64,000 bases of DNA from Raja brachyura (GCA_963514005.1 OY740789.1:68324001-68388000); one strand, 5' to 3'; counted from the first letter of the stretch, positions 1,418 to 55,500 are shown. The notes: generated by a model not told the origin, from the sequence alone. Program-made: numbers and translations.

Positions 1418-1496
1418 GTGTTGAGGACAGCAGAAGATATAGCGACTCGCCTTGCAACGGAGAAAGCCTGCACATGGCTGTCCACCAATATCACAG
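1418..1496 (+). CDS. CDAN1: CDAN1 exon ([26 protein letters not shown])
   Basis: tacgcag|GTG...ACA G|gtacgg; 79 nt, phase 0 to 1. Confidence 0.92.
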
Positions 1497-4400
1497 GTAC
1501 GGAGGAGCACAACTGTTCTTTCTCCAAGGGAGGGGGAGGGGGTGCAGAGAGGGTTCACTACTGACCCTGCATCCACCGGTCTCCTTGTCCCCCTCTTCTA
1601 ACCTCCCATTACTACCTAACACAGCCTCTCTATTCTCCTCTTCTCCTGACGTGATAAAGTGGCCCCTAATTTATCACGTCAATGTGATTGACAAGTCTAC
1701 ACAATTAAGTGATAATGTTAACATGTTGACTTGAAGCGATGATGTTGGCATATTGACCAGAAAGTGCTGGAGGAAATCAGAAGGTGAGCAGCATCTGTGG
1801 AGAGAATGGATAGACAACGTTTTGGATTAGAAGCCTTCAGATTGAATGGGGCAGCTGGTCGACCTGCCGTCTCACAGCACCAGACACCCAGGCGTGATCC
1901 TGACCTCCAGTGTTAACTGTGTGGATTTTACACGTTCTCCCTGTGACCCTGTGGGTTCCTCCAGGTGCTGCTGTTTCCTCCCACATCCCAAAGACGTGTG
2001 GGTTTGTTGGTTAATTGATCTTTGTAAAATTGCCGCTGGTGTCTAGGGATGCAAAAGTGATAACGTAGAACTAGTGTGAACGGGTGAGCAGTAGTTGATG
2101 AGGCAAAAGGCTCATTTCGATGCAATATCTTTAAACTAAACACTGAAGAAGGGTCTCGACCCGAAACGTCGCCTATCTCCTTCACTCCTTAGATGCTGCC
2201 GCACCCGCTGAGTTTCTCCAGCTTTTTGTGTAACACTCCCTCCACTAATGCTGATTTACTCCAGCACTTTGTGCTTTGTGCAAGGCTCCACCATCTACAG
2301 TCTCTTGTGTCTCAATAGTAGCATATTCATTAAATTACTGCACATTAGCTCATTAATTGACTGCACCAATGACAACTAACAAAGGACATTGAAAAGGTGC
2401 ACATGTCAAAACATGCCTTGATTTAATCTGTAGCCTCAGCAGCAATCACTGTCGGGTGCTGGTGAATAACAAATGTGTATTTTGTTGGTGCATTGCTTAA
2501 AGTGCAGCAACAGGTGGTAGTGCCAATTGGTTTGCTCTCTACATCAGACTCTCTTTCTGTTTTGTCATCAGCTTTAATTAAGAAAGAAATGACCCTCAGC
2601 TTTGAAAGACTGAAGAAATCTCGAACGATGCAATCGGCAAATACAACTGAGGCTTCCGGAACAACGGGTGGTTGCCCACCGGACTGTAAACACGATGCAC
2701 CCTCTCCTTCCAAGGTAGCCAGCGAGTTTAAGGTATGTTACATTAGTCTTAATGAGGTGGCTCAGAGGTTCTTGGAGCAGAATTAGGCCATTCGGCCCAT
2801 CAAGTCTGATCTGCCATTCAATCATGGCGGTTCTATCTTTCCTTCTCAACCCCATTCTCCTGCCTTCACCCCATAACCCCTGACACCCTTATTAATTACG
2901 AATCTGTAAATCTCCACCTTATAAATATCCATTGACTTGAGATGAAGGGATGCTTCAAAAGTTAATGTCGTTGATTAACAACAAACAAAACTTGTGCAGT
3001 TTTTCCCATCTTCATTTCTACTGGAGCCTGATAAATTGAGTATATCATATGGAATTTTTATTTGTGTACTTTTATGAGTACAATTTATATTCATTTTCCT
3101 GATATTGTGTGATTGGAGTAGCTATCTGTGATATATTTACCTAATTGATTAGAATTGCTTTCACCTGGTTTGGATTCCTGCAGTTGGCTACTGATTTTAT
3201 TAAGCAGTAGAGGATTGAAAAAAAAATCATATAGCATTAATTGCAGATATTGGAAACATTCAGCAGATCAGGCTGCTGTGGAAAGTTATCAATTTAGTTT
3301 GATGAGTGTTGCTAAGAACCGGAAAAGTAAATGTGCCAGAGCGCTCTCACTGCCTAATGTTTCACTCTGGTCAGTAATGTTTTCAAGAGAGAGCTAGAAA
3401 GGGTTCATAAAAATAGCAGAGTCAGGGGATATGAGGAAAAGGCAGGAACGGGGTACTGTTTGAGGATGATTAGCCATGATCACATTGATTGACTGTGCTG
3501 GCTCGAAGGGCCAAATGGCCTACTCCTGCATCTATTGTCTATAATATAGCCTTATGGGCCTTGTAGGAAAATACTTGTGTCTCCTTGTTTATGCTCCCCG
3601 GAGTCTTGATATTCTCATTTTGTGAGTTTTGTTCTCAACAGGACTCAAACTTGAGAAATGTTATAGCTTTGTCCTGGAAAGCTGAGTAACTATGGTGGCT
3701 ATCTAGGGATGGCAGATGCTATGCTGTGTTAAGTTAGAAATAAGGCAAAGGTTAGGGTCACAGGCAACTGTGACCCTGTTCTCCATGCATACATTTTGCC
3801 GAGATTCACTGGCTTGAGTTTAAAGCATGAAAGCTACCCAAGAGATTGGAATATTTCTGAGTGCTATGGGAAAATCTGAGTGGACAGCAATGACCAAGAA
3901 CAAGAGTTTCACAACTTCAGTCTTGTAAGCCTGAGACATTTTCCTAACTAATCAAAGCCTGCGTGCTGATCTCTTTGATGTTTCAAAATGCATTGGTCTA
4001 ATAAATCCATGATCCTGATATGATAGGGAAAATAAATTCATGATCCTGATATTGATTTTTTTTTTCAATTTTCTGTAGAACCCCCATAGCCTAATTGTTT
4101 TTTTGTCGTTTCCAAAGGAGCTGCTGAGTGTAACATTGGGTCCCAGGAATAAGGACGAAACAGTGGACCACCAGGAACTTGACAGTTTATTAAGAAGATT
4201 AAGCCAAACGCTGAAATGTAGACAGGTAGGCACTTTTTTCAAGGGCAGATGCATTGCTAGGATTCTTTTACATTTGCAATCAATGAATTGCCTTCCATTC
4301 ACTCTATGGCAGGGAATATAGGTACTTGTGTGTTCTCTGAAAATAAGGGAGAGTTACAGGTGAAGAGTCATCAGTCTGTCAGTGTCAGCATGGAGCAAAG

Positions 4401-7400
4401 CACTTAGTGATTTCTTGTAACTCTTTGGGGCAATAGTCAGAAAGGAGACAATAGGCAGAGCAGAATTGGTCAGGATGGTAAAAGAACACGAGAGAAAAGA
4501 GTGGGGAGGTTTGCTGATGTGTTTGGGAGGAGGAGGATGGATGCTGGCAAGATCTATTTTGGAAATCTCCAAATGGCTTAACATTCTAAGTTCAGCATTT
4601 TATTCCGATTCTCAACACTGAAGAGGTGGCCCTTGTGATGGATTGTAGCCTTTTTTCTTACAGTACATCTGTCCGGTAATTGAACAGGCCCTTGCCAAGT
4701 ACACCGTGGAGCTTGCATCTTTATTAGGTAAGCAAATGTGAAAACGTTTATTTTCTTCCAGTGTCCTGTGTGTTTTCCACCTCCTGGTGTAAACTTTGAT
4801 GCAAAGCAAGTTTTGTAGTTAATGTTGTTATTAGAATTAGTGCTTAATCTTTATAGAATTTTGATTTTGCTGGTGAAATCAATGATATGTAACTAAAGAG
4901 AAATATATGATTAATGATGTGTCAGTCCCATGTTTGGGGCATTGCAAATGCATTTCTGCCCTTTTTCACAACCAGTATGGTAGCCAAATTACACAACAGT
5001 GAAACCCACAAAACCACAATTAAAAATTAGACTTCTTTCAAGATTATTTAAGAAGGGCAAATATTGGGAAGTTCACAGGTAACATCCTCCCACTTGACTT
5101 CACCTGCGGTTTCGGCTGATTTATATTTCTTGAAGTTAACGGGAGCATTGGGATAATGCTTCAATTAACAGGACAGGAGGTAAGCGACAGCCTGGGTGCA
5201 ACTGCTTCTGCCTTACCCTGGACTTTAAACTGTGATATGATCGTACAAATGTGTCTGAGGACTAAAGTTTTTATTGTGTTTCTCATTGAACCAGAAGCTC
5301 ACTGCATTTGAAGACACAAGAGACTGTAGATACTTGAATCTTGAGCGATTAAAAACAAATTGCTGGAGGAATTCAGACTAAAAAAGTCCCCACCCAAAAC
5401 GTTGTCTATTTCAGTCCAAAGATGCTGCCTAGCCCGCTTAGTTCCTCCAGCACTTTGTTTTTGCTTACTGTATTTGACTTTCTTCTAAGTGCGTTTAAAC
5501 TATTTGTGAGGCTAATTGGAGAATTATACTATGACTATACGCTTTAATAAAAAGGGTAATTGTTTTAACATATTCATAGGTGAAATCTTATACTTTGCTT
5601 TCAGAGAACTTGCAGGATCATTGCTCTTGTTCTACAAGATTATTTTATTGTCACGTGTACCGAGATACAGTGAAATGCTTTTGGTTGGGTGCAATCCAGT
5701 CAGCTGAAAGACTATACATGATTACAGTCGAGCTAACCAGGTACAGGATAAAGGGATTAAGATTTAGTGCAAGATAAAGTCTGATTAAAGATAGTCCGAG
5801 GATCTCCAAAGAGGTAAGTGGTAGGTCCGGACAGCTCTCCAGTTAATGATAGGATGGTTTAGTTGCCAGATTACAGCTGGGAAGAAACTGTCCCTGAATC
5901 TGGAGGTATGTGATTTCACCCTTCTGTACCTCTTGCCTGATGGGAGAGGGGAGAAGAGGGAGTGACCAGGGTGAGACTAGTTCTTGATTATGTGGCGGAC
6001 TTGCTGAGGCAGAATGAAGTGTAGATGGCTAGTCCACAATATGGTGATATTTACTCCCAGGATCTTTCAGATTTCAACCATCTCAACTTCGTCGCTGACA
6101 GTGTATACTGTATCGCTTTGCATCCTAAAGTCAATCTCTGTCTCCTTTTTCTTGCTGACATTGAGAAGAAAGTTGTTGCCTTGACACCAGGTTATGAGGT
6201 TCTCAATCTCCTTCCTGTACTCCGTCTTGCCCATTTGATATCTGGCCCACTGCGGTGGTGTCATCCGTAAATTAAATTTAGTTAGCTTAAGGTCCACCCA
6301 GATGAATTTGTAAACCAGCATTTGCAGTACTGTATTTCTATTTTCTGAATGCTCTCATTTTTTGTAGTTGCAGGGGAAGTTCCATTATCTGATCCTACCG
6401 AGGAAAATTACAGGGAAGAACCTTCTCATTATGCATCTGTCCACCAATTGCTCACATTACTCCTTGCTTTGTGGAAGGACGATTTCCGTGTTCGCGTACC
6501 CCTTCAGCTAATGTTCAGTGAGAAGAACATTGCCTATACAGTGCGGACAGGAAATCGAAAGGTAACCTTTGTTGACTGCTCTTTAAGTGTGACTTACCCC
6601 ATTGTGAGCAGTCTTTATTCATTTGGTCAACAATTGTATTAATTATATTTGTGGGTTTATTCCTTATGTCCGTGGATTGTGACCACGTCTTTGATTGGAT
6701 TAGGGACGTGATTTTATGGGATTTGGACCAAGCTCAGTTATAAATATTGGTGAAGGCCAAACTTTGCTGAATAATTACGCCAAAATGTGCGTTTACTATC
6801 AAATAGACAGGCTTCATTGTCTTTCTACAGGGTTCCTGAAGCAGAGATCTCGCTCTCTCCCTCAGGGTACACTGTCTGCAGGGAGTGAGTGAACCTCAAT
6901 CAAATTATGTATGTATAGATCGCACCAAAAAGTATCCAGAAAATGCTACTTTTTCAGTATGAGGTCAGAATGTTTTTATTGGTTCTTGCTTTGTGACATT
7001 AGGCTTCAGTGAGCAGCAACCAGCTGAGGTTTTTTGTTTCATTTCTTAGCAGAAGGGACTGGGAATTAATGACATGGAAGGTAGGGCAGTGATAAACTAC
7101 TTCTGCAGGAAGGTGGGAGATCAGGGAACTTCCAATGTTCCTGGTAACTATACCATGGAAAGTATGTCAGCTGCAGCTCCTGTCAGACTGTGCAGAGCCA
7201 TGTGGAACGGGCGAGCCCTCGCTGGGGCTTGTCGGAGGGGAGCGCTCTGTTTCGCTGGCAGCCGGCAGCCTGAAGTCGCAGTCTGCAGAGCTCCAGCTGG
7301 CGCGGCGTCCTGGGCCTGGGATACCTCGTGGGGGACCCGGGAGAAGAAGAAGCCACCACTGCCGGCCCGCGGCCAACTTCTACCGCGGGTCCGGCGTGGA

Positions 7401-9308: not shown

Positions 9309-9475
9309 AACACAGGCTTGGATTATGACTTATAGAAAGAGGAAAGACGTGGTCTATTTTTACAGTATTTTACAATTAATGTGTCATTTGATTTGGATAT
9401 TTTATTAAAAGTTATCAGCTGGTAAATTTAATCAAATATTCAAATGAATATTTTGTAGTTCACATTGGACTAGCT

Positions 9476-9481
9476 AATAAA
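9476..9481 (+). promoter_or_regulatory. Candidate CDAN1 polyadenylation signal AATAAA (alternatives at 10150-10155 and 10189-10194)
   Basis: First AATAAA after the CDAN1 stop, followed by T/GT-rich sequence. Confidence 0.4.
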
Positions 9482-9631
9482 TGAACCACTTTTTTATTTG
9501 TGTAAGTAATCTGATGTTTGGCCTTGATTTTTAAGTTAACAATTAACTGGTCCTGTTCATTGTTTACAGTTGGCTACACTGTGGGCTGCAACAAAATGAG
9601 GAGCTGTTTCTGTCCTGTCCATGGATGGAAA

Positions 9632-9790
9632 GGGCCTGTCCCACTTAGGCTGTTTTTTAGACGACTAGGCTGTCGCCACATGGTCTGGAGTAGACTCCTC
9701 AGTCGCCCAAAGAGTCGTAGCTGGATTTGCAACATGTTCAAAAAATTTTGGCGACGGTGGGTTGACGCCAATGAGCGTAGGTTGTCGCCT
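9632..9790. mobile_element. Truncated related MITE between the two stop codons
   Basis: Starts GGGCCTGTCCCACTTAGGC and shares the internal caacatg.t.aaaaaatt motif with 13028-13668; second TIR not found. Confidence 0.6.
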
Positions 9791-10438: not shown

Positions 10439-10540
10439 TCAGCAGGAGAGTAAGCTGGTGACGTTGGCAATACACAAAGGCTGCTGCTTGGCGAGTGACT
10501 CCAACAGGTTGGGAGGAAGAGCAGGAGCACCAAGATCAAC
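10439..10540 (-). CDS. STARD9: STARD9 terminal coding exon ([33 protein letters not shown])
   Basis: ttttcag|GTT...TGA (stop at 10439-10441). Confidence 0.93.
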   Translation of the reverse strand, partial: VDLGAPALPPNLLESLAKQQPLCIANVTSLLSC

Positions 10541-13500
10541 CTGAAAAACAAAGAACGAGAAAGCTCAGCTTAATTTGTTATATGGGTGTCAACCTTAATC
10601 ACATTGTCACATCTACTTTACCTGAGTCAGGTGGATAAGTCGTGTTATCTCTTTCCCATTGTGGTTGTCAGGCTGCAGGATCCAGCCACTGGGCAGCATT
10701 TCACCTCGTACCATCTCTTTCACAGGTCGAGGCATTGATTCCTCATAGATGGATTGCATCGCCAAAACGTACTGCTTATTCTAGAGAAAGAAAGTGAATC
10801 GGACTCTGAGCTTATTGCATTGCACATTCTCCACGTAGCAAAAGTATAAGTTAGGATTCTACCATGTAGTAAACAGAGACATCCAGTATTAGTGGGGGCA
10901 GGGTGGGAGTGAGATTATTCACAGCAAGTTCTGTTTGCAGCTGCCTGCAACTCAATCATGATAAATAGCAAATTCTCCAATGGGTTGCAGTCTATAAAGA
11001 TATAAGATGGTATAGTTTATTTTAATTTTTAGGAACACATGCTCTGTTTACTGGGGTTATTGTAAATTGAGCCACTATAGGTATCATACCAAACTAGTTA
11101 TGGTGATATAGAGAGTGAGGAATGGCTGATTATGGACTGATACAGCCACACCACCTATTATGCAGAGTGCATGTGTAGTCTGCAAAGATATAAGCAGAGA
11201 AGGCAACATAGGCCTTGGATAGATTCAAATCAATGTGTAATGAGCAGATGTCTACAGAAAGGAAGAATCACCATCATAGGTTGTAATTTGGATTGTTTGA
11301 AGATGTTAAGAGTTCAAATGCAAGGATCACAGAGATAACAATGCCCATACTTAAAACAGAACAAAAAAGAAATCAATGCCAAAAGGATTCAACCCACAGT
11401 GGTTCACCGTACCTTTTTAGCCTCCACACTGATGCAGCAGAAGTCCCTGGGCTGGTTCAGATGGCAGGTGTCAATCACAAGGTAAACTTGATGAAGGAGG
11501 GAAGATAATCAAATGAAACAGCATAAGATTGTAAAGCAGTTGGTTTACAGATTTACAGAACATTTACACCATACAGCCATCCTTCATGTCCAGGTGAAGA
11601 GTTGCCCATCATAAATATTCTGCATGAAAAATCCTGTGAAACGCGGTGGATTAAAGTGGTGTCAGTTTGTTGATGCACTAATATTTATCCTGATTCTCCT
11701 CCCAACACCCTAAGCTTGATGAATGGCCTCTTGCTAACGACAAGTGATGGGGAGAAGAACATCAGTCGGAAGAAGGATTTCGACCTGAAACGTCACCTAT
11801 TCCTTCTCTCCAGAGATGCTGCCTGTCCCGCTGAGTTACTCCAGCATTTTGTGTCTACCTTCAATTTAAACCAGCATCTGCAGTTCTTTTCTACACAGCG
11901 AAGATGCTTTCCACCAAATAATTCAAAAATTGGTTACCTGGTACAGTGCAAAACCACAAAGAAAATTATGTTGCTCATCAGACCTAATTTGACTTTTACT
12001 TTCAATACTCATTCAGGCAGAACGTTCCATGGCATAACCGTGTTAGCATTGCTAACCCTTGGTTAATTTACCTTGTGTCTTCTGCCACTCATCAGTGTCA
12101 CTTTATCTTCACTTACCTTATGATTTCAAACCTCATTTGACGTAGCAATTTTTATACATTATTCAAGACTCAATCCCTGGAACAGTGGTTAAATATCCAG
12201 GGCCTTAGTTGGGCATAACACTAGTTGAGCTCTAACCAGTGTTTTAAAGGTTCAACATAACTGTTTCATTTGTCGTCTCCGCTTCTGTTTGGATAGAAAA
12301 TAATCTCATGTGCCTTTTTAATAGTTCTCTCAATTTAAACCCAGGTCTCTCGCTGTGCACTTTGTTTAAAGTGTACCATTGATCTTTTATGGTCGCTTCT
12401 CGTTTTCGCTACAGAACACAACCTTTCAGGGAAATGTTTGTCCATTTCAGCAGCCTGCCTACATTTCCAAGCCCTTTGTTCATTACCCATGTTTCATTGA
12501 AATTTTTAAATTCTATGTAATCCCAATTTCATGACCTTCCCTACACATTCGGGGCAATTTACAGGGGGGCTACAAACCCGCACATCTTTGGGATGTGGGA
12601 GGAAAATGGAACACCTGGAGTAAGCCCACGCAGTCACAGGGTGAACATGCAAACACCACCCAGTCAACAACAACTGAGGTCAGGATCAAAGTAGGTCTCT
12701 GATGCTGAGATAGCAGTTCTACCATCTGCGCCGTTGTGCTGCTAAAATCAGAAAAGGGAGCAGTCCTAAGCAATAATTACACGCAAAGGAAACGCCATTC
12801 ACCTCTTCTGCTTCTTTAGTTTAATATTATTTACAACAATAAGGGCTGTTATACCCAATTGCTCATCTAATAAAGCACCCACTTTGCTATTAGAACTATC
12901 TTACTGATCTGCCCTGATACTTGCTGTACCGGTAACTCTTCAACAGCATTCTCTCACTATCAGAATTAATTTCTATTTGCCATTTTATGCCTAACGGCCC
13001 AATCATATATATCTTCCTGCACTCAAAGGGGCTGTCCCACTTGGACGAACTAATCCGCGGGTTAAGAAGAGTGTCTTCAACCTTCAAGCTCGAGGGCACT
13101 CGCCTGGAAAGCCTCGAGCTGGATCGACCGACTGCGCACACACAAACACATCGCGAAGGTGGGGGCCAGGGATAGCAGGGGAGCGCCGTATTAAATACAC
13201 ACCCACGATGAAGAGGAAGGTAAAACGGCTACACAGTAACGGTGTCCTTTAGAGAGGGGGGGAGAGGGAGTGGAGACATTTTTAATAAGTATAATAAAGT
13301 TAAGTGGGTATTTAGCGGGCGAGGTTTTCCTTGGTCCTGAAAACTCCAATGAGCCAATCAAAATGCCTGGTCAGCAAAGGAGATTGCCTACGGCTGCTCT
13401 CGACTGCCTGTAACTACATAGCGACCCCACTACACTGCACTACAGTAAAAAAAAAGCCATGCTGACTAAATTTTACTCGCGGAAATATTTTCAACATGCT

Positions 13501-16500
13501 GAAAAAATTTCTGCAACCTAGCTGAGGCTAGAGAACTTCCCTCGAGCATGAAGGAGAGTTCCAGTGACCTCATGGGACCTAGGACCACGTGTCGACCATG
13601 CTGCGAGGTTAAAGGTCGAAGACACTATCATGAACTGGCAGATTAGGTCGCCCAAGTGGGACAGTCCCTTAAGATACCTTAACATCAACAAGATCACTTT
13701 CTGTATCTTCTGCAAATGTCTTCATTGTCTAGTCTACACCTGAGACCAAGGCATTAGTCGAAAGAACAAAAAACAAAGAAATGCTGAGCCTTATGGAACT
13801 CCATTTAAAAGCCACAAAACACTCAGCTCATCTCCCCTTAAATGACTGCCATTGAGCAAAGTCCGGAGCTATTTTGCCACTCGGACTTGGATCACATTCA
13901 CTCTTTTTTTTGACCAGCTTGCCATCATGGAACCTTGCTGAAATCATTACACTGGTTAAAACATTGGTTTAGCAACTCTTAAATCTGATTGACTAATTAT
14001 ATAAAATGTGTACTAGACTGTAGCCAATTACCCTCACAGTGGAACGTTTGTGATCTCAGCTGACATTGTTTACAACATTCAGAAATGTCAGGTTATGGAC
14101 AGTTATTGCACCCCTTATGTACCGTGAGCAGTGTCATTGTGTTAAAATACCAGTTCCCAGACTCAGACAAAGGTGATCGTTGGATAACTGGATACTGGTG
14201 CTGGACAAGAGAGTTTTACCATGAAAACTGTCCACCACAACCCTCTCAATGACCCTCCTTGTTACCTACCTCAAATAATTCCAACTGGTGAGTTGGACTA
14301 AACCTTTACCAGTTTCTATACTAGCAGACCCCGATCAGCCCACATCTTTCTAAATGAAAGTTTATGCTGTTATTCAATTAATTCCAATCATTTTTCTATC
14401 ACCCTGATAAATTAAATGACCTACAATTTCAGTGTTTTATCCATTCTTGACGAATGCTACAGTTTTAGCAATCCTTCAACCTTCACTCTGGCACCATTCA
14501 GAATCACACTGCATGAAAACAGGGAATGTCCTACAGCCGCTGATCAACATGTCCCATCTACACTAGTCCCACCTGCCTGTGTTTGGCCCCTATCCCTCTA
14601 CATAACTGTCTAAATGTCTTTTAAATGTTGCAGTACCTGGCTCAACTATCTCCTCTGGCTGCTCGTTTCACATACCCACCACGATATGTGAAAATGTTGC
14701 CGCAAAGGTTCCTACCTTTCCCCTGTAATCAGGATTGCAAAGTGATAGAGCTTCTGCAATTTCCTTTGTGTTTCACGCAGCAACATACCTGATGACTTAC
14801 ACACACAGATGTTCACCACTTAATATTCTGCTTTTTCTGGGTTTATCCTGTGTAGTACTTTACACTCACACCCCTCAACTGCAAAATTAGTCACCCTTTT
14901 ATGAGAACGGCCACAAACGTTATGTATAGGAAGTAACCGCAGATGCTGGTTTACACCGAAGATTAGACACAAAATGCTGGAGTAACTGCGGGCACCCAAG
15001 GCAGAATACCCGGATAGAAGGAATGGGTGATGTTTCGGGTCGAGACTTTTTCAGACTGAGAGTCAGAGACACAGAGATAAGGAAGTGGAAGTGTGAAAAC
15101 AAGACATCAAAGGGGATCAAGGAAAATAGATAATTGTTAGCTAGAAGAAGGTGACAACTAAGCATTTAATCAGGAGGAGAGTCGGACTGTTCGTAGAACT
15201 AGGAACGGAGAGGGATAGAGAGGGAAAGTAAGGGTTACTTGAAGTCTGAGAAGTCAATGTTCATACCGCTGGGGTGTAAGCTGCCAAGCAAAATATGAGG
15301 TGCTGTTCCTCCAATTTGTGCTTGGACTCTGGCAGGGGAGGAGGCCCAGGACAGAAAGGTCAGTGTGGGAATGGGAGGGGGAGTTAAAGTGTTTAGCAAC
15401 CAGGAGATCAGGTAGGTTTAGGCAGACTGAATGGAGGTGTTCAGCAAAACGATCGCATCCGCTTGGTCTTGCTGATATATAGGAGTCCACACCTGGAACA
15501 GCAGATAGAGTAGATGAGGTTCGAGGAGGTGCAAGTGAACCTCTGCCTCACCTGAAAACTATGGAGTAGAAGGAGGTGGTATAGGGACAGCGGTTGCAGG
15601 GGAAGTACCTGGGGAGGGGGTGGTTTGGGTGGGAAGGGATGAGTTAACCAGGGAATTGCTGAGGGAAGAGTCTGCGGAAAGTGGAAAGGGGTGGAGATGG
15701 GAAGATGTGACTAGTAGTGGGATCCCTTTGGAGGTGGCAAAAATGTCAAGAGTATGTGCTGTATGCGATGGCTGTTGGGGTGAAAGGTGAGGACTAGGGG
15801 GACTCTGTCCCTATTGCAACTGGGAGGAAAAGGAGTAAGAGTGGAGCTATGGGATATTGAGGACACCCTTGTGAGGGCTTCATCTATGATGGAAGAGGGG
15901 AACCCCGTTCACTAAAGAATGAGGACATCTCAGATGTCCTGGTATGGAACACCTCATCTTGGGCGCAGATGTGGCGTAGACGGAGGAATTGGGAGTAGGG
16001 GACAGAGTCTTTACAGAGGCAGGGTGGGAAGAAGTGTTATCTAGATAGTTGTGGGAATCAGTAGGTTTCTTGTTTAACTTGGCATCATATTCTGCACATA
16101 TATAGACCATTCCTCTGCTGTGCTATTCTACCATTTGCATTAATTACCCAACTTTCAGGCATCTTTTATACTACATCAATCATAATAAAAAAATATTTGC
16201 TTTTCACAAATACATGTCTATTGTCGTCTCGTCATCTCATTTTTGATTCCGACAGTGAACTTAAATCTGCTGAAACAGTCCATGGGATGTAGAATGTCTT
16301 CATAATTATCGCTGTTGTAGACTGTACAATGGGTTTTCCAGTCAAACATGCATAGAGGATGACCTTGTAAATCGTGAACTCTTGCTGGAATTCACACCTT
16401 TCTATTTGGGAGAAAATGACAACGCGGAGATCCTCAGTAACCAAATCCCTAGGTATGAACACACAGTCCTTCAGCAGACACCCAAGTTACTTCCCGCAAG

Positions 16501-40500: not shown

Positions 40501-43500
40501 TCTTCCTTTTCATCAGATAAAGTGCTAGACATTACACTTTGGACCTGTGAATCACTGGTTCTTAACTGGGCATCTTCAGAACAAACTGTGCTATCCTTCA
40601 TGCACAAATGTGCATCAAGGGTTCTGAGTTCACTGAACTTGGTATCAGAATCCATTTGGCTGTACATGAAAGCATCTGTTGAAGTATATTTGTCATCATT
40701 CATCAAAATATTTGTTTGAGCATCAGACTGTTGCTCCATTATAAACTTGGTAAATGGATACCCTTCTCCACCTTTAGTTGCAGTGCATCCTGTAACCGGA
40801 TGCTGCCACATTACAAAATGTTTTCGAGCTTCATGTTTTGACGAGGATTTTTCTGTTTGACTCATTTCATTCTTCATTGAAACTGAGTGAACGCTATCAC
40901 AACCCTTGCCTTGCAACACACTTCCCAACACAGATCTGGTTGAATTTTGTGTTAACGGTCTCAGAATATCTTTCTCTACAGACAAACTATTGTCTAAGTC
41001 ATTATTTTCTCCAGGAAAAGAGGACCATCTATCATTGGAAGATATTCTTTGGGTGCCTGGGTCTTTTTCCACATTTGTTGCATATTTTGCAAACATTATG
41101 GGGTGAAGTTGCTGTAATAAAGGTTTAGCAACTCGATGCGATTCAGTCTCATTGTTTGATTGCCTATGGCAATGTAACTCTTCTCTAGGTGAAATAAATT
41201 GTTCAGTTTCAGAAAAGGATTTCTTCTCAAAGTTGCATGAGGTATTGAGCTTGGCTGTATTCATCTCCGAGGCACTGCCATGTATTTGATCATTTTTGTG
41301 ATAGTCACTGTCTCTCAGCTGATTGCGTTGGGATAGTCTGCAGCTTCTTTCTGGTTCTGTAATCTTGCATTGTCTTTCTGTTACCTCCAATTCTGAATCT
41401 GCACCCTTCATGTCAATATCAGCATTTGTACTAGAGGTTTTAGGTTTCAAACTGTTGCATGTGGAAGACAGTATAAATTCTTCAGATTGCATTAGTGAAC
41501 TGGAGTGTTGTGCAGAATATACACCGTCTGACAAATTGGATATTCCTGCTGAAATACTTGTCAATAAATGTTTGGTTTTCATTTCTGCAGTTGAAAGCAC
41601 TCCAGTAACATAAGCCATGTCATGATCAGTACGTGGTGAGTTTTGCACTGTTTCTCCAACAGTTGCAGATGGACTGAGGAAGATTTCCTGCGTTTGAGCT
41701 GAATCCTCTTCCCTATCCAACATGCCTTGATTGTTCTCATCCCGTGGTGTATAATTCTCTCTACAAGTTGCAGGCACAGTTAGCATGTCCAAATTATGCA
41801 CGGCATTAGACTGGAATAGAACACAATTAAACACAGGGGGGATCTGACTTGCTTCAGATGCTTTCATTAATTCAGTACCTGCTTTTCCATAGCAATCCGT
41901 TTCAACTGATGAGATTGCCAGAACTGAATCATCATCAGATGAAACAGTCTCTACATTAGTCTTGGAACCAGACTCACAGAATGACCAAGTACCCGCCATG
42001 ATCAGAGGATTTATGTCATTTCTATTAGGTTTCAAATTTTCCAAATGTATATTGTTATCAAAGGTCATGACCTTCAACTTTGTGTTACTGCCCAAATTAA
42101 AACTCTGCTCGTTTAATGTCAGAGCCCCAACACTCTCCTTTTCTTGAATCACCACTTCATTATTCTGATAGGTTTCTTTTTCATCAACTTCATTCCAGGG
42201 TAGATTCCAGTATCTCTCTGCTGGCATTTCGTCAGAAGCTGTTAACCCAGGTGAATCCATCGCAAAAAGAACACCAGCTTCACCCATATCAGTGAGGCTG
42301 TCCACAGAAATACTTTTCCCTCTGCTTGCAAGTGTGTGGCTTGATGTCTTTATGTGAGATAAGGGAGCGCCAACGCAGTGTGCACTGCCATGGAATGCAT
42401 CAGCTGAGTGTACATCCCTGTCTGCCAGTGAATCCTGGGACATTTCACTATCATCACTTTCACAACAGTTCGCCTGCTGTTTGGATTGCTGTTCCTCTGT
42501 TTCCTCTTTCTGTAACTGCTCCGTTATAGCGTTTGCATATGCGGCTGAGAGAGAGTCCACAGAGTACAAGCTATCATTGTCTGACGGCTCCTCCTCTCCC
42601 AACCAGCCCCTTGGTGAATCATCAGAAACTGCTGTGACATTGGCATTCAGTATTTCTACGCTATTCCACTTCCTCACATTGCAAAGGAGAGGCACATTTT
42701 CCCAATGTTGGGCAAGGTTGACCATTGAAGCCCCCTGGATGGGATGCTGGCCCTCGGTGACTGTACAGAAACTTTCAGTCGTGAACAATTGCTTGGCTGG
42801 TGTCCTATTACACATGGTTGTGGGTGTTGAACTATTGCCAGTGCTCTCAAGTGCACATTTCCATGATGCATCCTTCTTCACATCCTCATCTGTTAATCCA
42901 AGCATCTTATCTGAGATTCTTTGGCCATCTCCTGAACATGCCATCAAGTATGATCTTCGCGTCTTAGTCTCGGAGACAATACTGACTTGGACCTCTGGCT
43001 GGTCGCTGCCGCTTTCAATTGTTTTTGACTGCCCTGGGCTGTTTTTAATTAACGGCTTTACAGCTCTGACATCCTTGTGCTCAGCACCTTTGCATTTCTG
43101 TTGTAATTGGTTCCAAACCGGTGAAATTATTTTGCTCCCCCCTTTTAAAGCTTGCTTCCTTGTTATGGGGAATGCCATTTTGGGTAAAGATCCCACTGAA
43201 AGAGATTTCTGTGCTTTGCGGTGAATCTTCTTCATTTGAGTTGAGGTAGCCAAACTTTTTGTCTTCAGGAAATCACTGTAAAAATCATTGGAAAATATTA
43301 AATGTAATTAAAATTGTTAGTAAGTCAAACTTATTTAAAAAAAAATTAAATCCCTTAATTTCCCTTAGTCTTGTGATTCAGCCTGTTCAGGTTGATAATT
43401 ATGCTTTAAAAAAAAAGCTACTTAGCCCCGGTGTTTGTCAGAACTGTTACTTGACATTCTTATTGGGGTCATGAGAGCTCAGTGTTGCCACTGGGGCAGT

Positions 43501-46500
43501 TGTGTTTGGTCCCTCTCAGCGACTTGCAGATAAAACACTGTGCCACGCAGCCACAGCCATGTTCTGCAGGACTGGAAGTGTCTTTTCTCAGGTGAGACAT
43601 CAAACTGACGGTGCAGGAGGATGCAAAATAAATTCCCACATCCATCTGACCAGACCAATGTTCATCCCTGAGGCAACATCACAAACAGGTTCCTAATTAT
43701 TATCTCACTGCTTGCTGTGTGCAAATGGGCTATGGCCTAATTACACAGACATCAAGGTCATCGTTAAAAGTACTTCACAAACTGTAAAGCACTTTGAGAT
43801 ACACAAAATGCTGGAGAAACTCAGCGGGTGCAGCAGCATCTATGGAGTGAAGGAGATAGCTGCTGCGGCACCCGCTGAGTTTCTCCAGCATTTTGTGAAC
43901 CCTCGATTTTCCAGCATCTGCAGTTCCTTCTTTAACTCTTAAGCACTTTGAGATGCCTGATGTTGTGAAAGTTACTGTAAGTTACTGCTGAATGATAGTA
44001 AATCAATTTCCCATGACCTGATGGTGAGGATGTGAATCTAGTCTGCTTTTAGTGCATTTCTTACTTTTTAAATGTACTTTGATTGAATAAAAGACCGTGT
44101 GCTTGTTACAAAGCAGAAGGCTGATCAATATTAAATCCTATTAGGTAGTTCTCTACTCACAAGCTGCAAACAAACAAATTGACGATACCATGAAAGCATA
44201 CCTGTAAAATGGTGCATACTGTGGGTACAGGTGTGATACCCGGTCACTTGAATCTGAATGTCTCCTAGTGAGAAAGGGAATGGATAATGAACGCCTTCTC
44301 GTGGGTAAGGAGCTTGGAGGGAATGATTTGTTCCACCTTGCCAGTTTAGGATTCATGGCAGTTTGTAAAGTGCTGGCTTTGCCCACTGTCGATTGTCCCA
44401 ATTGCTTCCTGCTGAGTAAACTTGCAGCTTCCAAGTGTCGCAATTTTGTCTTTGCCTCTAAAAGCTTGTGCTTCTCAGCGATTCTCTCCAGCTGATACTT
44501 GACTCTCTTCTTGCGAATACTTCGCTCAGCTTTCCTCAATGAGAGCCTTTGCAGAAGCTCCAGCTGCACCAATCGCTTTCGGTCCTGCTCGATTAAAGGA
44601 ATCTCTTCCATTTGCAGAGAGATCTGGACTCCACACTCAGCAAACGATGCCAAGTCAGTCTGTGTCCCCAGCTCTTGTCTCTGCTGTTCCAGGCAAACCA
44701 AGCGGTTTTCTTCATTTGCTAGATGTTGCTTGTCTGGGGGAAAAAAATAAAATAATCGAATGTTAGAAACATATCCATTCTGACAACATCTGTGATGACT
44801 GAAACATTGTTGTTGGTTTAGATTCAGCAATTTCTGCCTTGGCTTCTCCTTATTCACGATTCATCAGGTGGGGGACAAGAATAAAACGTGGGAATGGTTA
44901 ACAGTCAATCGTGTGCACAGCTACTGTCAGTTTTAATGCAGCGTTAAATGCCATTCAAGTTTACTGGTCTAGAAAGCTGAGCCACCTCTTCAACATATTT
45001 TCATAAGAGTACGGAAGTTATTTTAAAGATGTCCAGGGCAAGTTATTTTTACACAGAATGATGGGTGCCTGAAACGCACTGATAGGGGTAGTGATGGAAG
45101 TAGATACGATAGCCGTGTTTAGGAAGCTATGGGAAAGGCATATGGATATACAAGGGATGGGGGGGATATGGATCACCTGCAGGCAGGGGGGGTCAGTTTA
45201 ACATCATCCTGTTTGACGCAGACATTGTGGGCCAAAGGTCCTGTCCTGTGCTGTTTTAGCTTTGTACCACGATGCCCCAACACATTTAATTTAGCAGTTG
45301 CCAAAGAGCGATTGAGACCACTGAGGCAGGAGAGGCTGGCTCTTGGATAGTAGTAGGCGATTTTCTGCGACATCCTCATAAATCTTTTCTGAACCCTTTC
45401 AAGCTTGACAATATCTTTCCCACAACATGGTGCCCAGGACTGGACACAATATTCTAAATGTGGTCTCACCAACGTCTTATACAACTGCAACATGACCTCC
45501 CAATTTCTATACTCAATACTCCGGTTGATGAAGGCTTTTTTTGACCACCTTATCTACCTGCCACTCTATCTTCAAGGAACCATGCACCTGTACTCCTAGA
45601 TCCCTCTGCTCTACAACACTACACAGAGGCCTACCATTTACTGTGTAGGTCCTGCTCTTGTTCAACGTCCCAAAATGAAAAACCTCACACTATTAAATTC
45701 CATCAACCATTCCTCCACCCACCTGGCCAATCAATTGTTCACAACCATCTTCACTATCTGCAAAGCCACTAACTTTTGTATCATCAGCAAACTTGCTAAT
45801 CTTTCCCTGCAGGTTCTCATCCGAATCATTGATGCAGATGACAAACAATAATGGGCAATTTCAACCAGGGCTCCCGCAATTTCCTCTCTAGTTTCCCACA
45901 ATGTCCTCAGATTAGGCCCTGGAGATTTGTCTACCGTCAAACACGACAGTACCTTCAGTACTCTTCGACGGTAACACTGACAAGACACTTCCAGTGACTG
46001 CCCCAAGTTCCTCCGCCCTACTGTCTTTCTCCTTGGTAAATACAGAGGAGAAATACTCATTTAAGACCTTGCCCATCTCTTGTGGCTCCACACAGGTGAC
46101 CGCTTTGATTCCTCAGAGGTCCCACTCTCACTCTAGTTACCCTTTTCCTCATTATGTACTTATAAAATCTTTTGGGATTCTCCTTAATGCTACCCGCCAG
46201 AGCCATCTCCTGGCCCCTTTTTGCATTTCAGGTTTCCTTTTTTAGTTTACTCCTTAGTTCCCGAAACTCCTACAGGGATGCACTTGATCCAGGGATGCAC
46301 TATACCCTGCCCCATGCAACCGTCTTGTTTTTGACTAACGTCCCAATTTCCCTCATCAGCCAAGCTTCCTTAGATTTACCTGCTTTGCCCTTCACTCTAA
46401 CGGGGACGTACACATCCTGAGCTTTCTTCAGTACACTTTTAAAAACACCCCACTTGGCCGATGTTCCTTTCCCCTCTAATAACCTGATCTAGTCAACTTG

Positions 46501-49500
46501 AGCAAGACCTTCTCTCACACCCTCAAAGTTGGCCTTACCCCAGTTGAGCATTTTAACACATGGACCCTCTCCGTCCCTATCCATAACTATCTTAAACCTA
46601 ATCAAACTGTGGTCACTGGTCCCAAAAGGCTCCTCCACATACACTTCATTAACTAGCCCTTCCCAATTTCCCAATACTAGATCCAGCGTTGCCCTCTCAC
46701 GTGTGGGGGCCTCCACATACTACTTCAGAAAACTCTCCTGAACACTTTTGAGGAATTACACCCCATCTGAACGCTTCACGCTATGAATTTCCCAGTCTAT
46801 ATTTGGAAAGTTTAAATCCCCTACTGCAAAATCCCCTGTCTCTCCTGAAGCTCCTGTACCCCAGAACATTGAGCTGCCAGTCCTGCCCCTCCCTTAACCA
46901 GGTTTCAGTCACGGCCACAACGTCCCAGTCGCTCATAGCTATCCAGAAAAACAAATGCACCGCTGTAGCAATTAGCCCTGCCACCTCACAGCTTCTGCGA
47001 CCTTGGAAAAACTTCACTTCAGTAGTGTCTATGCGGAGCTTGCACATTCTCTCAGGTTATGTGGGTTTCTTACTACACCACAAAGAAGTATTGAATTGAC
47101 CTGCAAATTTGTGTAGATTAATGAAAATAAAAAACAAAGTGAAGTCGATGGGCATGCATTAAAGTAAAGGTGCAGGTGTATAGGGAAATAAATTGTTCTG
47201 ATAGGCACTGACACGGACCTGAAGGGCTAAATAACATCCTCTGTCATTATATGTTAAAAAAAAAGGCAAAGCTGCAGCTTCCGACAAGGGCAGCTACTCT
47301 TCCCTGTAATTTCAGAAAGCATCTGCTACTGATGGCATTAGGAATGCTGCAGCCAAAGGAACATGTAATATTTATTCAGTTCCCATCGTCATTGGGAATC
47401 TCCTATTCATCAGTCTCTGGAAGTAAGCATGCAGCTACAGCAGGCAGTGAAGAAAGCGAATGGCATGTTGGCCTTCATAACAAGAGGAGTTGAGTATAGG
47501 AACAAAGAGGTCCTTCTACAGTTGTACAGGGCCCTACCGAGACCACACCTGGAGTATTGTGTGCTGTTTTGGTCTCCATATTTGAGGAAGGACATTCTTG
47601 TTACTGAGTGTGTGCTGCGTAGGTTTACAAGGTTAATTCCCGAGATGGCGGGACTGTCATATGTGGAAAGAATGGACCTTGTGTACAATGGAATTTAGAA
47701 GAATGAGAGGGGATCATTGAAACATATAAGATTATTAAGGGATTAGACACGCTAGAGGCAGGAAACAAGCTCCCGATGTTGGGGGAGTCCAGAAGCAGGA
47801 GCCACAGTTTAAGAATAAGGGGCAGGCCATTTAGAACGGTGATGAGGAAAAACCTTTTCACCCAGAGAGTTGTGAATCTGTGGAATTCTATGCCTCAGAA
47901 GGCACTGGAGGTCAATTTTCTGGATTCTTTCAAGAGAGAGCTAGATAGGGCTCTAAAAAATAGCGGAGTCAATGGATATGGGGAGATGGCAGGAACAGGG
48001 TGCTGATTGTGGATGATCAGCCATGATCACATTGAATGGCGGTGCTGGCTCGAAGGGCCAAATGGCCTACTCCTGCACCTATTGCCTATTGTCTATTGTC
48101 ATACCGTGAGCGAGTGGAGAAGGGTGAGACTACGTACTTTCCTCAATCCGCAGCTTTAGCTGCTCCTGATCGTCTGTAAGCTCTTGTTCTGCTGTTGACT
48201 GCGTTGCTTGAATGCGTTGGCGCAGTTCCTCAATGTAGCATTGTTGCTGGCGTATCTGTTCTTGGTAGAATATTTCCAATCCCCTCAGCTTCTGTTTGTA
48301 TTCCTCGTACTCCTGCTGCTTGCTCTGGCAACCCTGCCGCAGTTCCCTCAGCTGCCTCCTGAGAACAAACAACAGATTAAACCCCCTTGCTTGGGTGCAA
48401 GGTACACTTAACTCCAGACTTAACGCTACACTGCAAAGTGTACAAAGTTCACTGCACCTCCCACTGCAAGAGCTCTGGCAGCTCGGACAGGGAACCTATG
48501 GTTGAAGCTGGCCGCGCATTACCAGGGCAACAATAGCAATGGAGAAACAAGGGGCAGCAGATGTTGGAATCCTGAGCAAAAAACTAACTGCTGGAGGAAC
48601 TCAACAAGTCAGGATGGCCATCACAAGTCCATCGGTCTGAAGAAGGGCCCAGACCAAAAACGTCTGTCTATTTCCCTTCCCCAAATGCCACCCGACCTGC
48701 TGACTTTCTCCAGTGGTTTGTTGCTCAGGGGAAGAGCAATAACTGGCACTTCGCTTGGTTCCTTCCCCATTATTACAGATGCTGGTTTAAATCAAAGGTA
48801 GACACAAAATGCTGGAGTAACTCAGTGGGTGAGGCAGCATCTCTGGAGAGAAGGAATGTGCGACGTTTCGGGTCGAGACCCTTCTTCAGACTGACCTGCA
48901 AATTGCCCTTTGGTGTAGATCAATGAAAAAAAATAACAAAGTGAAGTCGATGGGCATGCATTAAAGTATAGGTGTAGGTGTACAGGGAAATAAATTAGTT
49001 CTGATAGGCACTGACATGGATCTCAACACCTCTTTTAAGGGAGTGGAGGAAATCGACCCACACGACCTGTGCTTCAGTTTCATGCCGGTTGGGGCAAATG
49101 GAATACAAAGGTTTAGTTGTTAAGAACACCAGCTGATGTATAAAACTAGCCATTTCACTCAAGGACGGGCAGTTCCCAGCAGAGCCGGAGGTATGGGTGC
49201 ATGGCACTGATAGGTAACGAGCACAGCAACACGCTCTAGCCCGGCATACCTTCATCTGACACTTGACCAACGTCACACACGATACTCCAACTTTAGCAGC
49301 TAGACCCTGGCATCAACATCACTGATCATTGGGCCTACTGCACTTCTGTGCTGTATCACTCGATAACTCCCAAGGTTAAACAACCCAGATCACAGAACAG
49401 TCAAGCACGGAAACAGATGTTCTCCACTAGTGGCGGGTGTGGACTTTATGCCAACATACACGTCTTGCATACCGGTACAAGTCAATTAGTGCAACTATAA

Positions 49501-52500: not shown

Positions 52501-55500
52501 AAAGGCAGGCAATAGGCTTGTGATCGACGCTGACATGAGCATTCGTCCTCGTTTTGATCACCTGATGGCTGCAAAGCAATTTCAGCCATCTCATTGACAG
52601 AGTATTGGCAGACATATTTTAATAAATCAGGCTGGGTTTTTTTTTCAATTTTTGTTTCGGGGGTCACAGTACAGACCAAGAATGTCTGATGGGGTCGTGG
52701 AGCCAAAAGGGTTAAGAACCACTGGACCAGGGTATTATAGCAATCACAGATTTGTGGCTGAGGGAGAGACATCACTAGTGGGCAACTCAATGTTCCAAGG
52801 TGCAGATGTGACAGATGGAAGAGAGGTAAAGGTCAGAGAGGAGGAGGAGTTGTGATTTTAATTAAAGCAAACTTATTGGAAGTCTTTAGAAAGGAAATTG
52901 TTGGGGACTGTCCAGTGACAATGAGCATTATGGATCACCTCATGCATTACCAAGGAGTTATTGTTCTAAAACTGTGCTTTGTAAAACTGTGCTTTTTCTA
53001 AAACTAAAACTGTGCTTTTTTTTTACAGTCTTATTTCTTTTAACTCTCTGGCAAATGTATGTATGTGCATGTACATGTATGCATCATTTGTGCATATTTC
53101 ATGCACCATTTTTGTATTTTGCATGTATGTGCCCGAGTCTATGTGACTGTGGTGCTCCCTCATGCAAGTTCTTTTGTTTTACTTATACCTCGTTGTTCAT
53201 GTACATATGATGATAAACTTGACTTGAGGGTAGGAGACTGTAAAATTTGAGGGCCCAGGTTTAAAATAAGAAGTACTTAACAAGGACCTGAGAGACGACG
53301 TTTTCCAATGCAGACAGTGTGTAAAATGGAACAAGTGCCCGGCGGAGGTTGGTGCAACTACTACACTTAAAAAACACTTTGACAGGTAGGAAATTTTGCA
53401 GAAAGGTCTCAAGCCAAAACGTCATCTGTCTACAAATGTGGTCGGACCTGCTGAGTTTCTCCAGCATTTAGTTTTTTGCTCGTGAATAGGAAAGGTTTAG
53501 AGGGTTATGGCCAGGCACAGGCAGTCGGGTCAGGAAATTGGTTGGCATGAATATTGAATCTAAAAGTTACTTAACAACTCAAAGCTGCAAACATAAAGTT
53601 TCAAAACTAAGAATGTTTTGATTCATTGTTTATATTCCAATAACGTCTATCTCTCTTGGGAAACTCAGCAGACGAGGCAGCATCTATGGAGCGAAGGAAA
53701 TAGGCAACGCTTCGGATCGAAACCCTTCTTCAGACTGATGTCTGTCTGTCTCCCACCCCTGTTTGCTTTCCGCAGAGACCGTTCCATCCGTAACTCCCTG
53801 GTTGATTCGTCCCTTCCCACCCAAACCACCCACTCCCCTGGTACTTTCCTTTGCAACCACAGGAAATACTACACTTGTCACTTTACCTCCCCCCTTGACT
53901 CCATTCAAGGACCTAAGCAGTCTTTCCAGGTGCGGCAAAGGTTCACCTGCACCTCCTCCAACCTCACCTATTGCATCTGCTGCTCCAGGTGTCAGCTGCT
54001 CCACATCGGTGAGACTAAGCGTAGGCTTGGCGATCGCTTCGCCCAACACCTCTGCTTGGTTCGCAATAACCAACCTGATCTCTCGGTGGCTCAGCACTTC
54101 AACTCCCCCTCCCATTCCGAATCAATCCATTCTGTCCTGGGCCTCCTTCATGGCCAGAGTGAGGACCACCGGAAATTGGAGGAGCAGCACCTCATATTCC
54201 ACTTGGGCAGTTTGCACCCCAGCGGTATGAATATTGACCTCCAATTTCAGGTAGTCCCCGCTTTCTACTCCCCTTCCTCGCTCTCCCTCAGCCCACTGTC
54301 TCCGCCTCTTCCTTTCTTCTACCCGTCCTCCCCACCCTCACATCAGTCTGAAGATGGGTCTCGAACTGAAACATCGCCTATTTCCTTCGCTCCAGAGATG
54401 ATGCCTTATCCGCTGAGTTTCTCCAGCACTTTTGTCTATCTTCGATTTTCCAGCATCTGCAGTTCCTTCTTAAACATCTTATCTCTCTTGTGTCTTGTCA
54501 AATTACCTAAACATTCCTCACAGGAAATTGGAAAACAGTTACTTAATTACCAAAAGGTAAAAGTGAGAGTGTTTCATTTGCCAACACACAATGTTACATC
54601 CATTCTTCCTGATGATCATGAGTTCCTTCTTGGTATCTTATGTATCATAAGATACACGCAGTTCAATATTTAGTTTTACACAAGAAAAACGTCAGATTTT
54701 CACTGTTATCTTTATGGCAGTAATGCAATGATAATGTAGCAGATGACAATCAGAACCAGGGGCTACACTTAGAATAAAGGGGAGGCCATTTAAGACTGAG
54801 GTGAGAAAAAACTTTTTCACCCAGTGAATTTGTAGAATTCGCCGCCACAGAGGGCAGTGGAGGCCAAATCACTGGATAGATTTAAGAGAGTTAGACAGAG
54901 CTCTATGGGCTAGTGGAATCAGGGGAGAAAGCAGACATGGTTATTGATTGTGGATGATCAGCCATAATCACAATGAATGGTGGTGCTCACTTGAAGGGCC
55001 GAATGGCCTCCTCCTGCACCTATTTTCTATGTTTCTATAAATACCTCAATGAGATTTTCTCATTCACTTCATGTGTACAATTAAGAAACACATGTGAATT
55101 TAACGTGTGCCACATTGCAATGCACACCCTTTTTGTGGGTAAAAGCCCCAGTAACCATAATTTACAGATAGAGACTGAAGTACCAACAAAAAGAGCAATG
55201 TAGCAATATGTGAGGAGGTTGAATGTCTACTTTAGGATTACCTTGATTCAGTTCATTGGAACATGTCCAAGACCATTCTATCTACCCTGAACAAGTATAC
55301 CTTAGTCATCAGGATTTTCATCAAATAAATGCGATGACGACTACATTCTGACAAAGACAATTAGAGTTTATCTTTATCAGGAACCTTGGAGGAACCAGGG
55401 AGATTCACTCACTGCTGAAGTCCAGATTTGAGGCCTTCAAGAAGGATGATCCTGTCCTGTACAAGATGGCCAAGTACGATCTCCGAAAGCCTATTAGGGA

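Follow-up and report, generated by a model that had tools for sequence, protein, structure and literature searches.

The question raised by this locus is what a short repeat bearing a hammerhead ribozyme motif, scattered over a 64,000-nucleotide (nt) stretch of the genome of the skate Raja brachyura (GCA_963514005.1 OY740789.1:68324001-68388000; the window, from whose first letter all positions are counted), represents, and whether it is the self-cleaving RNA module that an initial annotation of this DNA had proposed. The best explanation, to which we give a probability of about 85% as a whole, is that the repeats are ends of a Penelope-like retrotransposon, that its hammerhead likely cut the RNA of the parent element weakly, and that the scattered copies are likely inert fossils; the further step, that the short solo units are products of run-off copying, has an even chance. 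The motif, its carrier and the occurrence of thousands of solo copies per vertebrate genome have already been published; what is new is the skate host. The family supplies a case from cartilaginous fishes in which the motif is extremely reduced and the copies are very many, and leaves what is known of hammerheads and of Penelope-like elements unchanged.

Terminal repeats of a Penelope-like element

All 12 hammerhead cores listed in the initial annotation were present, at the positions and on the strands that it gave. A covariance model, whose training set included 8 window copies, recovered every one of them, that at 5372 weakly (E 0.05), and added 2 more, at 23535-23575 (-) and 53390-53429 (+). 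The core heads a longer unit, whose conserved tail measures up to ~105 nt, and the 14 core-bearing pieces per 64 kb, a density of ~220 per Mb, are accompanied by ~9 pieces that consist of tail only. A family profile built from the window copies gave 24 matches at E ≤ 1 (22 of them at E ≤ 0.012) and none when the window was reversed, and the strict core pattern matched twice (2143 (+) and 48863-48889 (-)) against 0.01 expected from 100 shuffles. The Rfam/Infernal scan that had been proposed as a check was negative, the hammerhead models giving no match at E ≤ 1 across the 64 kb; its only 3 matches were to unrelated hairpin families, with scores under the gathering cut-off. Scanned for the exact motif, contigs from metagenomes, prokaryote genomes and viruses returned 0, 0 and 0 matches, and a protein-based scan of the viral contigs for the element also found none.

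Four of the cores sit ~85-195 nt downstream of broken gene pieces for the end of a reverse transcriptase (RT) and a GIY-YIG endonuclease, in the same orientation (16089-15238 (-), 22136-23018 (+), 23886-23647 (-) and 53753-54253 (+)). Full-length relatives, which have 750-920 residues and carry the RT followed by GIY-YIG, align with these pieces over their RT end, linker and endonuclease. The piece at 53771-54250 had 4141 protein relatives at E ≤ 0.001, the best being from elasmobranchs (Leucoraja 75%, Rhincodon 62%, Hypanus 59%); GIY-YIG was recognised in all 10 relatives scanned (3 above the Pfam cut-off and 7 below), and RVT_1 in 6 of the 8 long ones. Pfam gave no match on the window's own broken gene pieces, and a word-based homologue search with the endonuclease piece against longer proteins retained 0 of 109 candidates. 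In alignment, a C-x4-C-x2-C linker precedes the endonuclease of close relatives and is degenerate in the window. Because a Cys-rich linker between RT and endonuclease is a mark of Neptune and Nematis (PMC8557442), the carrier is assigned by this linker as a putative Neptune/Nematis-type Penelope-like element. The terminal-repeat carrier suggested in the initial annotation is well supported by the gene-linked cores and by relatives with the motif at the same place, and it is close to certain that the motif-bearing repeats are the terminal-repeat ends of a Penelope-like retrotransposon encoding RT and then GIY-YIG.

The pieces also bear the marks of insertion by such an element. Five head-to-head pairs were found (5350/5372, 16569/16617, 43797/43858, 48546/48630 and 53655/53753), and 14 elements tested for target duplications had 16, 13, 14 and 11 nt at four, 6-7 nt at five and none at five. 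The 3' ends, measured from the cut site (n = 21), fell at +58 to +71 in 9 cases and at +87 to +106 in 9, with 3 shorter, giving two end points separated by ~35-40 nt that resemble the optional 30-40 nt 'tail' described for Penelope-like elements (PMC8557442, PMC11167929). Inverted partners, optional tail and target duplications are hallmarks of endonuclease-positive Penelope-like insertion. The copies would have been inserted by target-primed reverse transcription, a mechanism taken from the literature that would yield the inverted 5' partners and target duplications observed in the DNA.

A minimal hammerhead core and its relatives

The end of the element is ordered as gene end, pyrimidine-rich 3' untranslated region (UTR) of 95-195 nt, 2-bp helix I, CUGAAGA, extra A, 4-bp helix II, GAAA, CG, UC and tail, the last extending ~60-70 or 90-105 nt beyond the hammerhead. 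The catalytic positions (C3-A9, G12-A15.1 and U16.1-H17, in type-I order) were intact in 4 of the 16 aligned copies and in the majority line. Core conservation across the subfamily majority lines, which the initial annotation had set as a check, was complete: every catalytic position was kept in all of them, as were helix II and the palindrome. In the window rows, the extra base between 9 and 10.1 was A in 13 of 16, the 10.1-11.1 pair was G-C in 11, G-U in 3 and unpaired in 1 (n = 15), and the palindromic 15.2-16.2 was intact in 8 of 16, the breaks being mostly CpG changes. With its core, extra base, G10.1-C11.1 and palindromic 15.2-16.2, the motif agrees with the published consensus, and the proposed classification as a type-I minimal hammerhead holds. 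Minimal hammerhead ribozymes were described from the pseudo-long terminal repeats of metazoan Penelope-like elements, with ~4,000 solo copies in the coelacanth and ~9,000 in Xenopus tropicalis (Cervera and de la Pena 2014, PMC4209133). As presented there, they share with the skate copies the type-I order, the core, the extra base after A9, G10.1-C11.1, a palindromic 15.2-16.2 without helix III, the terminal-repeat position and the thousands of solo copies, but the skate motif differs from those surveyed in its short helix II (4 bp) and minimal helix I (2 bp). A term search of supplement file 2 of that paper found no shark, skate, Callorhinchus or Leucoraja.

Relatives were represented by 95 loci at 36-62% protein identity, comprising the best 80 of 402 metagenome-contig loci and 15 genome-contig loci; motif tests used the 81 loci that had ≥250 nt of downstream sequence. 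A strict descriptor matched 21 of these 81 in sense and 0 in antisense orientation (0.05 expected), with the extra base in 21/21 matches and the palindrome in 19/21. The covariance model matched 67 of the 81, mostly ~100 nt past the endonuclease match; of its 18 matches on the minus strand, 17 lay upstream, as inverted partners. Two-sided changes were seen in 5 of 9 pairs across 15 rows (8 from the window and 7 from relatives), and 0 of 500 shuffles reached the observed value on four measures, with 50 of 500 doing so on a fifth. Helix covariation had been claimed at the outset; it was evident between skate copies and relatives and weak within the window alone. The copy at 20895, singled out for a covarying AGGTC/GACCT, does have the A-U closing pair, but is weak evidence for covariation because the C>T half is the usual CpG transition, the copy at 53395 has G10.1>A without a pairing partner, and the palindrome of the 20895 copy is broken. 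Read as sequence comparison, the fixed position and the compensatory pairs in distant relatives show selection on the motif in the active lineage.

Two side observations concern the relatives. Loci L081-L095, Penelope-like elements of which many bear the hammerhead, come from contigs deposited as prokaryotic metagenome-assembled genomes (13 of the 15 in one assembly), and are probably host-animal DNA that was binned with them. A Leucoraja gene model (P0001) has DUF4518 fused to the endonuclease end of this element, by exonisation or as an annotation artefact.

The skate family has a helix I of 2 bp, against mostly 3 bp and up to 6 in the relatives, and one rival explanation is that the skate motif is a vestige which has lost cleavage and whose sequence is kept as a promoter or protein-binding site. 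Besides the shortened helix, this would account for the competing folds that dominate the best copy and for the lack of cut ends in the X20 RNA reads described below. Published results point the same way, in that 8 of 9 Xenopus dimers are reported to have failed to cleave and, in the Anolis carolinensis Poseidon element PAc, insertion in vitro did not require cleavage (Frangieh et al. 2024, PMC11167929). However, the majority lines of all subfamilies retain the catalytic positions, helix II and palindrome, position 1.1 varies between A and G, both of which pair with U2.1, 2-bp helices I are known for flies, Culex and Oikopleura (PMC4209133), and the PAc hammerhead cleaved after addition of its protein (PMC11167929). 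Complete loss of cleavage is on these grounds rather unlikely, and the odds lean towards the family consensus cleaving measurably as a dimer or with its protein. Single minimal motifs are reported not to cleave, and dimers to cleave weakly (PMC4209133); the RNA of the parent element was likely cut weakly, as a dimer or with protein help.

Solo units, their edges and their abundance

The 5' edges were read from alignments in 18 pieces, a set that excludes the 4 gene-linked copies and that at 20895. Nine lay at -8 to +1 of C3, nine at +13 to +66, and none within 2 nt of the cut. These edges look real because the upstream flanks are 30-60% pyrimidine in non-gene pieces against 78-90% in gene-linked copies, and because several adjoin an inverted partner or another repeat. 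In the relatives, a TATA box was present at -45 to -30 of C3 in 45 of 68 distinct flanks, compared with 4 of 612 control windows, and began mostly 37-41 nt before C3. The spacing from TATA box to transcription start is ~30 nt, which would place the start ~7 nt before C3, and a terminal-repeat promoter firing just before helix I is likely in the relatives (L001-L095), judging from these flanks. A splice acceptor just before helix I, considered on account of a pyrimidine tract and CAG in 3 gene-linked copies, was set aside, as the relatives are without these bases and solo copies keep them.

In the mechanism proposed here, transcription of an active element would start a few bases 5' of the hammerhead, in the upstream repeat, and the hammerhead would slowly trim the transcript, either as a dimer via the four-base palindrome or with protein help; dimerization through a palindrome that replaces helix III is suggested by published relatives. 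Reverse transcription, primed inside the transcript at either tail end, would proceed along uncleaved RNA and run off its 5' end, leaving a sharp edge at the hammerhead start and not at the cut site. The downstream repeat would give rise to the 5'-truncated gene-linked copies and the upstream repeat to solo units of ~100-140 nt, and the copies would later decay. For the solo units, an origin by run-off copying of uncleaved RNA has an even chance, and reverse-transcription stalling at the hammerhead structure may alternatively have produced the 5' edges. More tentative, at somewhat under even odds, is the proposal that skates amplified a SINE (short interspersed element)-like by-product of a Neptune-type element, 10^4-10^6 copies of ~100-140 nt that extend from the transcription start at helix I to the internal start of reverse transcription. 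If true, the edges form a genome-wide fossil record of uncleaved, start-site-capped RNA as the productive template, the hammerhead restricts rather than enables transposition, and these edges map, without experiment, where a vertebrate Neptune element has its promoter and where it is primed. The copies are so many that a single assembly suffices for reading start and priming sites and the covariation of subfamilies.

For PAc, uncleaved RNA is reported as the main insertion substrate, with reverse transcription starting internally (PMC11167929). The skate family is like PAc in its terminal-repeat hammerhead, its two downstream 3' end points and the lack of RNA-seq ends at the cut, and is unlike it, PAc belonging to the Penelope/Poseidon clade, in having the Neptune/Nematis Cys linker. 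In the skate copies, a search of the gene pieces reached no beginning of the reading frame. The role of the hammerhead in Penelope-like elements is still debated (PMC8557442, PMC11167929).

Abundance and expression were gauged from four sequence runs aligned to 48100-49000 at 80% similarity. Two of them, X14 and X15, are contigs of unrecorded kind, of which 180,048 and 174,876 aligned, the unique flank being matched with 1-4 differing letters. Summed depth at G12 was ~10 million, compared with 9-12 on the unique flank; the plain depth ratio of 0.8-1.0 million becomes 27,000-34,000 on division by 31, an assumed factor for overlapping contigs, and is a measure of depth, not of copy number. As a rough range the family has 10^4-10^6 copies, likely one to two orders more than the published minimal-hammerhead genomes, and contig depth and window density together bear out the very high copy number that had been predicted. 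Among the core variants listed for the run contigs, all were CpG transitions. The X20 run, of raw polyA reads, comes from a relative, of another species than the window: 132 reads reached ≥99%, and the host exon received none; 20,585 of its 7,335,232 records aligned, equally to both strands, and 98% continued into unlike sequence. This pattern is consistent with passive read-through and gives cleavage in vivo no support.

A second rival explanation treats the short unit as an independent, non-autonomous element like a SINE or a retrozyme, transcribed, self-cleaving as dimers, maybe circular, and spread by the Penelope enzyme. Solo pieces do outnumber gene-linked ones by 18 to 4 and have a common 5' edge, and tandem pairs must exist somewhere in the genome, since X14 and X15 contain head-to-tail joints with a period of 91-98 nt. 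Retrozymes derived from Penelope repeats are known in one chondrichthyan, and the non-LTR retrozymes as described (PMC7229834; bioRxiv 10.64898/2026.07.22.740005), which are reported to reach up to 120,000 copies in the axolotl, are like the skate family in being hammerhead-bearing, non-coding, related to Penelope terminal repeats and of very high copy number. These retrozymes, however, form tandem arrays with mostly canonical hammerheads and circular RNAs, whereas the skate copies are dispersed, minimal and not tandem within the window: no tandem pair of the unit occurs there, 0 of 7 tandem-repeat rows correspond to it, and the closest same-strand cores, both damaged, are ~950 nt apart. The contig joints are rare (9-38 contigs per joint among the joints listed), with depths of 100-360 where the unit itself reaches millions. 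Further, a cleaved or circular template would place the edges at the cut, but they lie at the motif start, subfamily tails are common to solo and gene-linked copies, and the canonical 6-bp helix I is missing. Such an independent element is improbable. Another set of contig joints runs from 48892-48894 to 48860 with 1-5 letters between; if head-to-tail, the tandem cores would be ~38 nt apart. Whale shark repeats are reported to include Penelope, and within the open-access literature (Repbase, Dfam and the supplements of bioRxiv 10.64898/2026.07.22.740005 being outside its scope) no description of the skate family or of the 5' edge cluster was found.

Several observations weigh against the reading of a weakly cutting parent element copied by run-off. 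The edge test was post hoc, its p of 1e-4 applying under an arbitrary uniform 80-nt null, and the edge cluster is not general, with 1 of 18 inverted copies in relatives starting ≤10 nt from C3. The TATA box is absent from all 3 younger gene-linked skate copies, and the X20 reads (~6% of the run) have no pile-up of ends at the cut or at the proposed start. The rows used for covariation are related and come from few families, 5 of the 7 relatives being one family, and the shuffles provide support, not a probability. The window contains neither a full-length element nor an RT core. Lastly, the hammerhead of the best copy (48889) is not the predicted minimum fold in context, with probabilities of 0.08 for helix II and 0.0 for helix I, and its in-context folding z is 0.6, mostly other folds being formed.

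Decay of the copies and neighbouring features

Core and palindrome are both kept in 2 of the 16 aligned copies, those at 2143 and 48889. The initial annotation called them perfect, which is right for the core but not for helix I: the 2143 copy begins at C3 and has none, A2.1 lying opposite G1.1, and in the 48889 copy it amounts to 2 pairs, including a U.G. Loss of core nucleotides by CpG decay was correctly recognised, G12>A being found in 8 of the 16 rows. CpG was retained in 5/16 at 11.1/12, 9/16 at 15.2/16.2 and 6/16 at the tail site, a loss that is similar in core and tail; as for a genome-wide protection of G12, G12>A in X14 stood at 13% versus 16% and 11% at the 15.2/16.2 CpG and 33% at the tail CpG, figures subject to reference and clipping bias and taken among the variants listed. 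Nearly all the dispersed copies are dead-on-arrival fragments in neutral decay, and the scattered copies are likely inert fossils. The description of the repeat as a self-cleaving module finds no support in copies that are mostly decayed, have no tandem partner in the window and show no cut ends in the X20 reads, and motif counts exaggerate the number of active ribozymes, most copies here being dead. A conserved 'off switch', in which the tail pairs with the core, was rejected as unsupported in 9 of 12 copies tested; pairing as high was reached by 1 of 100 tail shuffles for 48889, 4 of 100 for 11767 and 2 of 100 for L034.

It could be argued that the host has domesticated the two intact copies as intronic ribozymes of CDAN1 and STARD9, as both have 0 of 28 core differences against 5-6 of 58 tail differences and both are sense to the nearest host gene, the intron of the 2143 copy being inferred from one exon match. 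But there are two such copies only, their low tail divergence marks them as young, the 2143 copy is without helix I and neither has a partner. Moreover, the 11 core-bearing copies in STARD9 introns show no strand bias (4 sense, 7 antisense, p 0.55), and domestication is very improbable.

The gene-linked copies are all broken. A 5'-truncated Penelope-like copy at 14921..16089 (-) consists of the RT-end/linker/GIY-YIG piece 16089-15238, a pyrimidine-rich 3' UTR, a core at 15029-15054 with a 2-nt deletion and broken palindrome, and a long tail. Another at 22136..23311 (+) has the gene piece 22136-23018 and 3' UTR followed by a core at 23213-23240 with G12>A, a broken palindrome and a short tail. 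An old copy at 23495..23886 (-), one of two that the first listing had missed, retains a linker/endonuclease remnant (23886-23647) and a heavily decayed core at ~23535-23575. These pieces (22136-23886) are flanked by inverted copies of another repeat at 21782-22026 and 24026-24277 (81% over 257 nt). The textbook insertion is that at 53648..54490, where an inverted terminal piece (53741-53655 (-), core 53706-53733, A15.1>G) lies head-to-head with a 5'-truncated copy (53753-54477 (+)) within an 11-nt target duplication; the latter has the linker and GIY-YIG piece to ~54253, the 3' UTR, a core at 54348-54375 with broken palindrome, and a long tail.

The best copy occupies 48776..48896 (-), in a STARD9 intron and in sense orientation, with intact core and palindrome at 48889-48862, a helix I of 2 bp (U.G, G-C) and a predicted cut between 48862 and 48861. 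The other intact one is a solo terminal piece at 2143..2232 (+), with core and palindrome at 2143-2170, starting at C3, and with a short 3' end and a separate tail piece downstream (2249-2306). An older-subfamily terminal piece at 1752..1845 (-) has its core at 1816-1840, with a 3-nt deletion and G12>A, and another repeat adjoins it upstream. The short repeat at 1845-2007 (also at 12572-12735), which we take to be SINE-like, directly adjoins the 5' edge of this copy, and a similar repeat end precedes the 2143 copy. Solo pieces are also found at 11759..11897 (+), with a long 3' end and a core at 11767-11794 that has U4>G and a damaged helix II, and at 26392..26524 (+; core 26397-26424, U4>A and G12>A, long tail). 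The divergent copy at 20889..20944 (+) has intact core positions, a broken palindrome and a helix II closed by A-U; its upstream flank is pyrimidine-rich, and no gene piece was found there. The second copy missed at first is a decayed older one at 53392..53477 (+).

Two of the head-to-head pairs join a tail piece to a core copy, at 5350..5466 (tail 5350-5376 (-), decayed core copy 5372-5466 (+)) and 48546..48725 (tail 48546-48613 (-), core copy 48630-48725 (+) with its core at 48637-48664 and G12>A). Two more consist of tails, at 16552..16740 (16569-16620 (-) and 16617-16726 (+), no full core, 16-nt target duplication) and 43787..43954 (43797-43865 (-) and 43858-43936 (+), 14-nt target duplication). 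A piece beginning within helix II lies at 28017..28114 (-; piece 28099-28019, 13-nt target duplication), and a decayed one beginning within the core at 29339..29396 (+).

Most of the host gene STARD9 lies in the window, at 10442..48360 (-), recognised by 12 exon matches, including an 11-kb exon at 43283-32007, and 60914-60837 gave one further, weaker match to an exon. Protein identity, for a search with 461 residues, was 90% to Amblyraja radiata, 87% to Rhinoraja and 71% to Pristis. The repeat copies from 11759 onward lie in its introns. Its 11.3-kb open exon (32007-43307 (-)) has 3762 codons, is 89% identical to the Amblyraja protein and contains short in-frame repeats. An exon like that of codanin-1 (CDAN1) lies at 1271..1564 (+).

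Unrelated repeats were also seen. At 62231-63499 (-) there is a nearly intact reverse transcriptase frame of 421 codons from another element, of the LINE (long interspersed element) type (RVT_1 E 2e-32). Broken frames at 50732-52062 (+) had no Pfam match and look, by eye, like a hAT-type DNA transposase. Decayed LINE fragments with related translations, which we assume to be CR1-like, lie at 17954-18655, 28179-28790, 29352-29785, 45173-46060, 47369-48089 and 55959-56342. Finally, an 18-nt GC-rich minisatellite of ~23 copies with a 92% match occupies 57259-57833 and is open in several reading frames.

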